DNA of 64,000 bases from an uncultured Planctomycetaceae bacterium (lineage in GTDB: Bacteria; Planctomycetota; Planctomycetia; Planctomycetales; Planctomycetaceae): positions 1,184,001-1,248,000 of the forward strand of contig CAWFAK010000005.1 of assembly GCA_963813715.1 (NCBI GenBank), in the 5' to 3' direction. Positions within the stretch are counted from its first letter, which is position 1; the number at the start of each line of letters is the position of its first letter. Positions 22,741 through 24,487 of this stretch are shown here, one piece after another. The notes under the pieces were generated by a model. The model saw nothing but the letters and a program-made list of their open reading frames with translations. It made no database searches and had not been told where the DNA came from. The position numbers and the translations under genes are program-made.

Positions 22741-22936
22741 ACAGCTGTGGGAAGGCTTGCGAAGCGTAGCGAAGCAAGGTTTCCCACAGCGGCCGGCGGT
22801 AGATCGTCCGCCCTCAGGTCCAAGAAGACCGTGGGAGAGCTGGATCGCCGCCGGTCTCATGAGATCAGCCCGAACAGCCGTCAGAGCCGTCGTGGCGCCA
22901 GTCGCCGCTCGAGCTCGCATTCGCAAGGACGGGACA
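22741..22936 (+). ncRNA. Predicted IS110 bridge RNA, copy 1 (ends approximate)
   Basis: 5' hairpin 22744-22790; target loop with TCCGCCCT (22807-22814) and TGGGAGAG (22832-22839); donor loop with ACAGCCGT (22874-22881) and GCAAG (22923-22927). Confidence 0.85.
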
Positions 22937-22941
22937 TCGTC

Positions 22942-23894
22942 ATGGACGTCGCCTTCAAATCCTTCGTCGGTATCGACATCGCCAAACGGACCCTCGACGT
23001 GCACGTGCTGCCTGAGCGAACGTCGCTCAAGCCGCCAAACGATTCCAAGGGCCGAGGGCAACTCCGAGAGAAGCTTCCTCCTCCCGGAGAGTGTTTGATC
23101 GTCGTGGAAGCGACTGGCGGTTACGAGCGGGCCCTCGTCGCCGAACTGATCGACGCGGGCCATCAGGTTGCGGTCGTCAACCCCCGACAAGTCCGCGACT
23201 TCGCCAAAGCCTGCGGAATCCTCGCCAGAACCGATCGGATCGACGCGGCCGTGCTGGCACGCTTCGGGCAGGCCGTCGTGCCGCGGACCCAGACCAAAAT
23301 CCCGGAAAAACAGCTCGAACTGCAAAACCTCGTCGTCCGCCGCCGGCAGCTCGTCGAGCTGCGAACCGCCGAAATGAACCGCAAAGAAAACGTCGCCAGC
23401 AAGTTTGTTAAAAAGAGCCTTCAGGAGAGCGTCAACGCGCTCACCAAGCAGATCCGACGCTTCGAGAAGCGAATCGCCGCGCTGGTCCAATCGGACGACG
23501 AGTGGAAACAGAAGGCCGAGATTGTTCAAAGCGCCCGGGGATTGGACCGGGCACGAGTGCAACCCTGATCGCCGAGGTCCCCGAGTTGGGGAAGCTGAGT
23601 CGACGAAAAATCTCCGCACTCGTCGGCCTGGCCCCCTTCAATCGCGATAGCGGCGAGTTCCGAGGACGCCGCGCGATCCGCGGCGGCCGAAGTTCGGTGC
23701 GCTGTAGCCTGTACATGGCGACGCTCAGCGCACGACGCTCCAACCCAGTCATCAGAGCCTTCTCGGATCGCTTGAAAGCCCTCGGCAAAAAGCCCAAGGT
23801 CATCATCACCGCCTGCATGCGCAAGCTGCTGGTGATCCTCAACACGATGGTCAAAAACAACACGCACTGGAACCCTGCAATCTCAACCACTTAA
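22942..23894 (+). CDS. IS110 recombinase/transposase (DEDD RuvC-like plus Tnp20 domain); 1-nt frameshift near 23535
   Basis: [16 protein letters not shown] and RTDRIDA (DEDD); PGIG and [10 protein letters not shown] (catalytic Ser). Confidence 0.95.
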
Positions 23895-24291
23895 CTCTTG
23901 AAAAGAAACACAGCCGCTCTCCCGTCTTGCCGGCGTCCGCCGCTTCGGCGGTCAGTGCCGGCGCGGACTCAATACGGGGAGAGGGGGGGAGATGTGGATG
24001 GGGTCTTGGGATCCTGGGCCTGCGCTGTGCTCCGACCCAGGCTATAAGCTGTCGCGCCCCGTTGGGGCTGGAGAAGATTGGGACGGCATGGGACGGGACA
24101 CGTTGTTTCATCGAGCGTATCCCGGCAGATTCGACCGCCGTCCCTAATCGATTGCCGCCGACGGATGGTGGGCGTGCGCCCGCCCGCGGCGGATTTGTCC
24201 CACCCTACGGGATCGCGGATGAGCGAAGAGGCCCCCTCACCCCCGGCCCCTTGTATGTTGAAAAAAGGTCAATCTGCGGCATTTGATGGGG

Positions 24292-24487
24292 ACAGCTGTG
24301 GGAAAGCTTGCGAAGCGTAGCGGAGCAAGGTTTCCCACAGCGGCCGGCGATAGATCGTCCACCCCGAGGTCCCAGAAGACCGTGGGAGAGCCGGATCGTC
24401 GCCGGTCTCATGAGATCAGCCCGAACAGCCGTCGGAGCCGTCGTGGCGCCAGTCGCCGCTCGAGCTCGCATTCGCAAGGACGGGACA
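24292..24487 (+). ncRNA. Predicted IS110 bridge RNA, copy 2 (ends approximate)
   Basis: Same fold as copy 1; guides TCCACCCC (24358-24365), TGGGAGAG (24383-24390), ACAGCCGT (24425-24432) and GCAAG (24474-24478). Confidence 0.85.

Follow-up and report, generated by a model that had tools for sequence, protein, structure and literature searches.

Two tandem elements of the IS110 family lie in a 64,000-nucleotide stretch of DNA from an uncultured Planctomycetaceae bacterium (assembly GCA_963813715.1, contig CAWFAK010000005.1, positions 1,184,001 to 1,248,000; hereafter the window, in whose numbering positions are given), and the putative bridge RNAs encoded by the two elements differ in the guide that reads the left side of the target. 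The question raised by this locus is whether that difference has redirected one element towards another variant of the repetitive extragenic palindromic (REP)-like repeat into which both are inserted, as the original prediction, made from the sequence alone, had proposed. We find that the observation and the functional assignment of the guides are correct, and that the inferred retargeting is unsupported. In what we consider the best explanation of the locus as a whole, each left end probably encodes an IS621-like bridge RNA of approximately 190 nt, made up of a 5' stem-loop followed by one loop for the target and one for the donor, and copy 2 probably derives from a sister lineage, which is also found with an intact gene in soil metagenomes, its donor-loop hairpin and 3' 460 bp having been swapped for copy-1-type sequence in this genome.

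The elements (window 22700-23918 and 24250-25468) are direct repeats arranged head to tail with a spacing of 335 bp, and are 95% identical to each other. Each measures 1215 bp between CT cores, with TGTATG as its first and ACAGCCG as its last letters, and each is preceded by CCGGCCC-CT (22693-22701; 24243-24251), as had been predicted. Their boundaries are as follows.

22693..22701, + strand: copy 1 left target CCGGCCC with core CT, within the 5' part of a REP-like hairpin
22702..23916, + strand: copy 1 IS110-family element, 1215 bp, TGTATG...ACAGCCG
23917..23924, + strand: copy 1 right core CT with right target CTCCCG
24243..24251, + strand: copy 2 left target CCGGCCC with core CT
24252..25466, + strand: copy 2 IS110-family element, probably mosaic
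25467..25474, + strand: copy 2 right core CT with right target CTCCCG

The source assembly (18 contigs, 7.49 Mb, 82.6% complete) contains nine such elements, all of which (9/9) have junctions of the form target-CT-TGTATG...ACAGCCG-CT-CTCCC; one target-loop sequence is common to eight of the nine, with window copy 2 being the sole variant. The CT core is found on both sides of the element and once in the empty site. The site of copy 2 occurs without the element in contigs of soil sequencing runs X1, X3 and X4, where 24250/24251 is directly joined to CTCCCGCGG..., these contigs reading ...CCCT followed at once by CTCCCGCGG... A further 70 unoccupied REP-like sites of the form N7-CT-CTCCC are present in the genome, and the insertion point at this locus lies between both arms of a longish hairpin (CCCTCACCCC ... 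GGGGCGAGGG). The core was placed at the first CT of CTCTCCC because the right guide and the target change together in four orthologue groups, as detailed below. Placing it at the second CT of CTCT, which would give a right end of ...GCCGCT, was rejected given that the left donor guide matches ACAGCCG and that the empty sites and the left junction fit the first CT only.

From the element start to the ATG of the recombinase gene, the non-coding left end spans 240 nt, within which the following parts of the predicted bridge RNAs were delimited.

22745..22789, + strand: copy 1 5' stem-loop, helices 1-3, 8 pairs changed on both sides
22791..22856, + strand: copy 1 target-binding loop, with outer stem, guides and inner hairpin
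22807-22815, + strand: copy 1 left target guide TCCGCCC+TC
22833-22839, + strand: copy 1 right target guide GGGAGAG
22869..22933, + strand: copy 1 donor-binding loop, layout compared with the IS621 description (PMC11208158)
22874-22881, + strand: copy 1 left donor guide ACAGCCGT
22920-22928, + strand: copy 1 right donor guide AT..GCAAG
24296..24340, + strand: copy 2 5' stem-loop
24342..24407, + strand: copy 2 target-binding loop, with an A-U pair in the outer stem
24358-24366, + strand: copy 2 left target guide TCCACCC+CG
24384-24390, + strand: copy 2 right target guide GGGAGAG
24420..24484, + strand: copy 2 donor-binding loop, with left donor guide at 24425-24432 and right donor guide at 24471-24479

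According to the published description of IS621, the left target and donor guides correspond to the top strand left of a CT core, and the right guides are the reverse complement of the core and the right flank (PMC11208160, PMC11208158); the left donor guide is reported to be 8 nt long and the right donor guide to be interrupted by two flipped-out U (PMC11208158). At this locus the 7-nt right target guide GGGAGAG is the exact reverse complement of CT+CTCCC, and it stands opposite CTCTCCC at every readable right junction, namely in 9/9 copies of this genome, 4/5 copies of a same-genus genome (the right junction of L008 is unread), and 7/9 metagenome contigs with a left end (for L064 neither a left end nor a right junction could be read). 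In orthologues with other targets, guide and target have changed together and remain exact: CACGGAG with CT-CCGTG in L016, CCCGTAG with CT-ACGGG in L017, GGGTGAG with CT-CACCC in L022, and CACCAAG with CT-TGGTG in G219. ACAGCCG+U, the left donor guide, agrees with the final 7 nt of the element at 7/7 positions and has its U opposite the core C, and the right donor guide, AU-UC-GCAAG, lies opposite CT-TGTAT at the left end of the element. The right target guide and both donor guides (GGGAGAG, ACAGCCGT and AT..GCAAG) are identical in the two copies, as had been noted. The exactness of the right guide in orthologues with other targets, together with the orthologue support for the left register given below, bears out the predicted guide assignment and supports the predicted register of the left guide. 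A search of Rfam returned no matching bridge RNA family; the sole match within the element was a sub-threshold one, on the opposite strand, to the Xanthomonad small RNA sX15 (window 22780-22894, - strand, the reverse strand of the copy 1 target loop; 25.3 bits, cut-off 55), and sX15 itself might be derived from an IS110-type left end.

A consensus fold was obtained from 17 of 20 distinct RNAs, the alignment omitting L017 (too divergent), L052 (a near duplicate of L048) and L067 (which has no 5' stem-loop), and four predicted pairs between the left and right guides were taken out before scoring. Its elements are the 5' stem-loop, an outer and an inner stem in the target loop, and the donor-loop stems. 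Across the 17 RNAs, 96.9% of cells are paired, vs 34-47% in controls whose partners were slid by 1-3 columns; both sides have changed in 14 pairs, vs 2-7 in these controls, and none of 500 shuffles (0/500) reached the observed values. Variation along the RNA is greatest in the loops. The outer-stem pair by which the two copies differ reads GC in 10 of the 17 and AU in the other 7, with zero intermediates, so that the compensatory change in the homologous left ends is borne out; the AU version is carried by copy 2, L068, L045, L071, L064, L016 and G219. In the window this corresponds to CCGGCGGT / GCCGCCGG in copy 1 (22793-22800 / 22847-22854) and CCGGCGAT / GTCGCCGG in copy 2, a G-C to A-U change. 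The change in the 5' hairpin was likewise read correctly, with G:U in copy 1 (22754:22780) and A:U in copy 2 (24305:24331); in the alignment this pair is AU in 13 RNAs and GU in 3. RNAalifold also pairs the 3' part of the left guide with the right guide (alignment A2 columns 74-77/96-100; window 22811-22814/22833-22837), with two-sided changes in L016 and G219; this might allow the free RNA to close its target loop, or the pairing might follow from the composition of the targets. The donor-loop hairpin at window 24444-24460 has two natural versions, GUGGCG-CCAGU-CGCCGC and GCGGCG-UUUUG-CGCCGU (X2, X4, L068, L072), with the stem kept in both.

The left target guides do differ, with TCCGCCCT at 22807-22814 and TCCACCCC at 24358-24365, the letters and coordinates having been verified. 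To the differences listed in the original prediction we add the two positions after the 7-nt left guide (TC in copy 1, CG in copy 2), the dinucleotide that follows the right target guide (CT in copy 1 vs CC in copy 2), the linker after the left donor guide (CA in copy 1 vs CG in copy 2), and one base of the inner hairpin loop. The copy-2 substitutions are real, not consensus errors. Of 10 loci identified in metagenome contigs by a pattern scan, three (L068, L069 and L072) carry the copy-2 target loop letter for letter, including the A-U pair; each has an intact open reading frame of 317 amino acids, 289 of whose 317 residues are identical to the copy-1-type protein. Contigs from soil runs of different studies also extend over copy 2 (X1, 24279-24429, with 0 other letters; X2, 24248-25305; X4, 24247-25003), and zero differing letters were reported for the X1, X2 and X4 contigs covering 24291-24433. 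It is thus highly improbable that the differences reflect a faulty consensus or assembly of a repeat, or the random decay of a dead copy, and for the substitutions this explanation is already refuted, both by their exact recurrence in three metagenome contigs with intact genes and in run contigs from different studies, and by a stem change that is compensated and recurs in G039, L071, L064 and L016. In its favour, the assembly does have indel faults: private frameshifts occur in 6/9 copies, a gamma-glutamyltranspeptidase gene in the window is split, and run contigs contradict both the 2-bp gap after 24677 and the extra base at 24277/24278.

In the original prediction, copy 2 was taken for a mutated duplicate of copy 1; instead, it appears to stem from the sister lineage with 289/317 identical residues, recombined with copy-1-type sequence. 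Six copy-1-type elements were compared with two pure copy-2-type elements (L068 and L072), yielding 91 fixed diagnostic positions. From the target loop to the linker of the left donor guide (24350-24434), copy 2 has the lineage 2 state at 8/8 positions; in the donor-loop hairpin (24449-24460) it has the lineage 1 state at 7/7; over 24522-24973, in the 5' part of the gene, it follows lineage 2 at 28 positions, lineage 1 at 3 and neither at 1; and over 25009-25458 it follows lineage 1 at 44/44. Sliding identity to L068/L072 is at least 98% in four of the first five 150-column windows (about 24252-25000), the exception being the second (94.7%), which contains the copy-1-type patch at 24449-24460, and the windows beyond these five are 98.7-100% identical to copy 1. 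Such a pattern suggests that copy 2 underwent gene conversion by, or recombination with, elements of the copy-1 type, perhaps the neighbouring one.

The register of the left target guide was examined by scoring 9-nt guides (7 nt plus two core positions) in three registers against real left flanks, allowing U.G and G.T pairs. The 5' side of the target loop consists of G + 10 nt, which in the predicted register are divided into 7 nt after GAUCG, two core positions and one linker base. This register gave the best mean matches out of nine for G219 (8.3), G039a (8.0), G039b (7.5), L022 (7.0) and L017 (7.0), with individual scores of 9, 8 and 8 of 9 in G219 and 9/9 in L071, and the copy-2 type scored 6.25 vs 4.25 and 5.0 in the neighbouring registers. 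The two guide types of the window reach 6-7/9, the second core-reading base being mismatched with T. Pairing of the left loop farther upstream with the REP arm, with which copy 1 shares GCCCTCA and copy 2 CACCCCG, was set aside: the shared letters are low-complexity, C-rich sequence, the right guide puts the crossover elsewhere, and the orthologues back the usual register. Two side observations concern the same loop. L016:1002-1193 and L048:1443-1634 have equal loop lengths and near-identical guide letters (UCGUGUC) with registers one base apart, and L071 has the left junction CCCGGCC-CG-TGTATG, with CG not CT while its right junction is still CT, and a left guide (UCCGGCC-CG) that matches its own left junction at 9/9 positions.

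The functional claim made for the guide difference was that the change of G to A at guide position 4 retargeted copy 2 to REP variants ending in ..ACCC-CT-CTCCC. The REP family does vary where the guides vary (CACCCC, then GG/GA/TG/AA/TA, then CC(C), then CT), and target bases at the position facing guide position 4 were counted for three sets of sites.

G-guides (copy-1 type), 14 sites: G 10, A 1, T 2, C 1
A-guides, 7 sites: G 5, A 1, T 1, C 0
Unoccupied REP-like sites, 70: G 39, A 9, T 13, C 9

The A-guide insertions counted are window copy 2, L068, L072, the X2 contig, L067, L010 and L073. The site table omits L064 (left end not found) and L066 and L069 (contig ends before the flank), and L014, L023, L026, L029 and L041 fell outside the analysis as the loop pattern did not match. 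Variants of the proposed kind exist, CCGACCC-CT-CTCCC occurring 6 times genome-wide in a wider count and 3 times in a stricter census, but the target base is A at only 1/7 A-guide insertions vs a background of 9/70, at which rate the chance of at least one A in seven is about 0.6. There is no sign of the predicted covariation between guide position 4 and the target base at these sites, though seven sites are few.

Adaptive retargeting of the copy-2 lineage to A-bearing REP variants is accordingly unlikely in our estimation. It would draw on the unoccupied A variants among the 70 sites (CCGACCC 3, CCCAACC 2, CCAACCC 1), on the insertion of the copy-2-type L072 in CCAACCC-CT, where A faces A, on the occurrence of G/A variation at position 4 on two loop backgrounds (L067 and the copy-2 type), and on the location of the change in the loops, where the RNA varies most. 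Set against these are the A-guide insertions themselves, with target A in one, G in five and T in one, and the fit of the two guides to the genome: the copy-1 guide has at least 6/7 matches at 32/70 sites and 7/7 at one site, vs 6/7 at 8/70 sites and 7/7 at none for the copy-2 guide. With G.T allowed, no site among the 70 unoccupied ones fits the copy-2 guide better than the copy-1 guide. Furthermore, because a G.T pair in the left guide is present in the IS621 structure (PMC11208158), G may already serve the A variants. In the explanation that we favour, the G-to-A change most likely makes the set of acceptable REP variants slightly narrower and does not give access to a new target. L067, in which the A at position 4 stands on a copy-1-like loop background, is peculiar in another respect: at L067:1244-1435 (- strand) an intact 317-amino-acid gene accompanies a bridge RNA without the entire 5' stem-loop.

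A second possibility, which we regard as real though short of probable, is that the left-guide differences are effectively neutral, with target choice governed by the exactly matching 7-nt right guide together with the C-rich ends of the left one, and perhaps by the REP hairpin. This would agree with left-guide matches of 5-6/7 at nearly all natural sites compared with 7/7 for the right guide everywhere, and with the perfect match of the most successful guide (copy-1 type, 8 copies) at just 1/70 sites. In addition, a target stem-loop is reported to add specificity for the REP-targeting ISPpu10 (preprint 10.64898/2026.03.19.712850), and insertion with half of the bridge RNA matched is described in another preprint (10.64898/2026.08.31.748434). 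It is opposed by the guides of the G039/L071 type (UCCGGCC, UCUGGCC), which match the commonest REP variant, CCCGGCC (19/70 sites), at 7/7 positions; selection for matching therefore seems active in at least some lineages.

The identity of the donor guides bears on a further claim, that either RNA could mobilise either element. All lineages seen, including orthologues whose proteins are 50-63% identical, have the same element ends and donor guides, and the IS621 bridge RNA is reported to work in trans (PMC11208160), such that use of either RNA in trans on either copy is mechanistically plausible. Since donor ends and donor guides are the same across lineages, any co-resident bridge RNA together with an intact recombinase could move any copy. 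The two minority-guide elements found beside a copy-1-type majority are window copy 2 and L010 of the same-genus genome, and in each case the occupied site is matched better by the majority guide (6 vs 5 of 7 and 6 vs 4 of 7, respectively), which is weak evidence given that the majority guide fits most sites better anyway. It is conceivable, if somewhat doubtful, that co-resident sublineages form a shared pool of bridge RNAs and recombinases, in which the target loop is an exchangeable module, as the patchwork in copy 2 of a lineage-2 target loop with a lineage-1 donor-loop hairpin and 3' end would illustrate, and an insertion site may mismatch the guide of its own element; window copy 2 and L010 would then sit in majority-fitting sites because another copy's RNA placed them there.

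The recombinase genes, located downstream of the bridge RNAs, are the following.

22943..23894, + strand: copy 1 recombinase gene (DEDD_Tnp_IS110 and Transposase_20), with a 1-bp gap near 23544 in the assembly
24494..25444, + strand: copy 2 recombinase gene, with a 2-bp gap after 24677 in the assembly

An intact genomic copy (P0001) encodes a 317-amino-acid protein with Pfam matches to DEDD_Tnp_IS110 (PF01548; 89.2 bits, E 3e-25) and Transposase_20 (PF02371; 63.2 bits, E 3e-17), and matches the solved structures of the IS621 transposase (8wt6) and the ISCro4 transposase (9t56) at E 3e-42. In the alignment to ISCro4, the paired motifs GIDIAK/GIDVSK, EATGGY/EATSTY, KTDRIDA/KTDAVDA and RDSGEF/YESGSS retain the expected D, E, D, D and S (presumably the counterparts of IS621 D11, E60, D102, D105 and S241). 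Private frameshifts were found in 6/9 genomic copies. Contigs of all four soil runs (X1-X4) read GC after 24677, where copy 2 has its 2-bp gap, and omit the extra base at 24277/24278, in X3 by part of the depth only. The neighbouring gamma-glutamyltranspeptidase gene (window 26809-28768, - strand) is split between two frames, with profile positions 2-104 in one open reading frame and 99-512 in another, through either an assembly indel error or a pseudogene. Frameshifts of this assembly are unreliable, and because of the indels contradicted by run contigs, the private frameshifts and the split neighbouring gene, the window copies are not called pseudogenes.

Several observations weigh against the proposed combination of IS621-like bridge RNAs and a recombined sister lineage. 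With respect to the register, the data leave the copy-1 type undecided (6.71 vs 6.43 mean matches), L016 is clearly shifted one base later (9/9), and a register one base earlier is slightly favoured for L067 (n=1) and the L010 type (n=2). The clade that targets REP repeats has C or G instead of U as its second core-reading base, and because of this the left guide departs from the IS621 rule; it would therefore read the core via its first base only, like the left donor guide. A sigma-70 scan of 22600-25600, covering the integrated elements, found 0 sites. By analogy with IS621 (PMC11208158), joined ends could provide a candidate circle-junction promoter, in which TTGAAA (23898-23903) would be followed by 13 nt, CT, TG and then TATGTT (22704-22709), giving a 17-nt spacer; no junction of right end to left end was seen in the soil-run contigs at the locus. 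Intact reading frames are present in just 3/9 genomic copies, and both window copies are broken in the assembly. The mosaic structure could in principle be an artefact of repeat polishing or assembly. Finally, few insertion sites were available (14 with G-guides, 7 with A-guides), and a moderate difference in specificity between the two guides is possible within such a sample.

Other sequence features were observed around the elements. A repeat, GGGACGGGACACGTTGTTTCAYCGAG, is located at 22639-22665, 24098-24124 and 25503-25529, roughly 30-115 nt upstream of REP-like hairpins, and its core motif has 61 occurrences in the genome; the target of the elements may be part of a longer composite repeat that includes GGGACGGGACACGTTGTTTCAYCGAG. 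Runs of GTCCAA / TTGGAC units form inverted repeats at window 22165-22200 and 22560-22635 and are also found beside another copy of the element (in the c16b flank), representing a further repeat family. An Acido-Lenti-1 RNA motif (Rfam) was identified in this Planctomycetaceae genome at window 21964-22011 on the + strand (48.7 bits, cut-off 37, E 4.5e-9), with a second match, under the cut-off, at 21777-21821 on the - strand (20.5 bits).

The closest comparison is with IS621 of Escherichia coli (Durrant et al. 2024, Hiraizumi et al. 2024), with which the elements share the two recombinase domains (E 3e-42), a bridge RNA in the left end with 5' stem-loop, target loop and donor loop, a CT core on both sides, a target in a REP-type repeat, and, as described in PMC11208158, the right donor CTTGTAT with an interrupted right donor guide AU..GCAAG. 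They differ in the length of the right target guide (7 nt vs 4 nt in wild-type IS621; PMC11208158), in a left guide that appears to use 7 nt plus the first core base only whereas that of IS621 has 9 nt, in natural left-guide matches of 5-6/7, and in the host, a soil Planctomycetaceae. ISPpu10 and ISPpu9 of Pseudomonas putida are alike in having several copies, all in one REP family, and a target hairpin, and a section heading of the preprint 10.64898/2026.03.19.712850 reports their recombinase as acting in trans; the ISPpu10 hairpin, however, is described there as a short 5' extension pairing with the left target, whereas the insertion here lies between two arms of a longer hairpin. In ISEc11 and ISXne4 (IS1111 family seekRNA; Siddiquee et al. 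2024), as here, the RNA scaffold is kept while target-matching stretches differ (PMC11187229). Their transposases are reported to be 72% identical and their targets to share 3/13 bp, making the redirection obvious (PMC11187229), whereas the lineages compared here are 91% identical, differ in one guide base and two CT-facing positions, and use the same REP family, with no visible redirection.

Published work already describes the bridge RNAs of IS110 elements, how they covary with targets, and the REP repeats that they target (PMC11208160, PMC11208158), as well as natural reprogramming between related elements (ISEc11/ISXne4; PMC11187229), and the locus reveals no new mechanism. A literature search combining bridge RNA, IS110 and Planctomycet* found no paper, and the present analysis extends the bridge RNA system to soil Planctomycetaceae. 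Given that bridge RNAs are programmable recombination tools, it is useful to know how guides drift naturally, how mismatches are tolerated, and how RNAs are shared between copies. The locus offers a clean natural pair in this regard, in which scaffold, donor and right guide are shared while the left guides differ at one base and at the core-reading positions, and intact relatives of the pair exist. A clade that appears to combine partial core reading with loose REP matching bears on the share of specificity held by the right guide and the target hairpin, and, if bridge RNAs and recombinases are indeed pooled among co-resident copies, the copies of a genome would sample REP variants collectively through the diversity of their guides.

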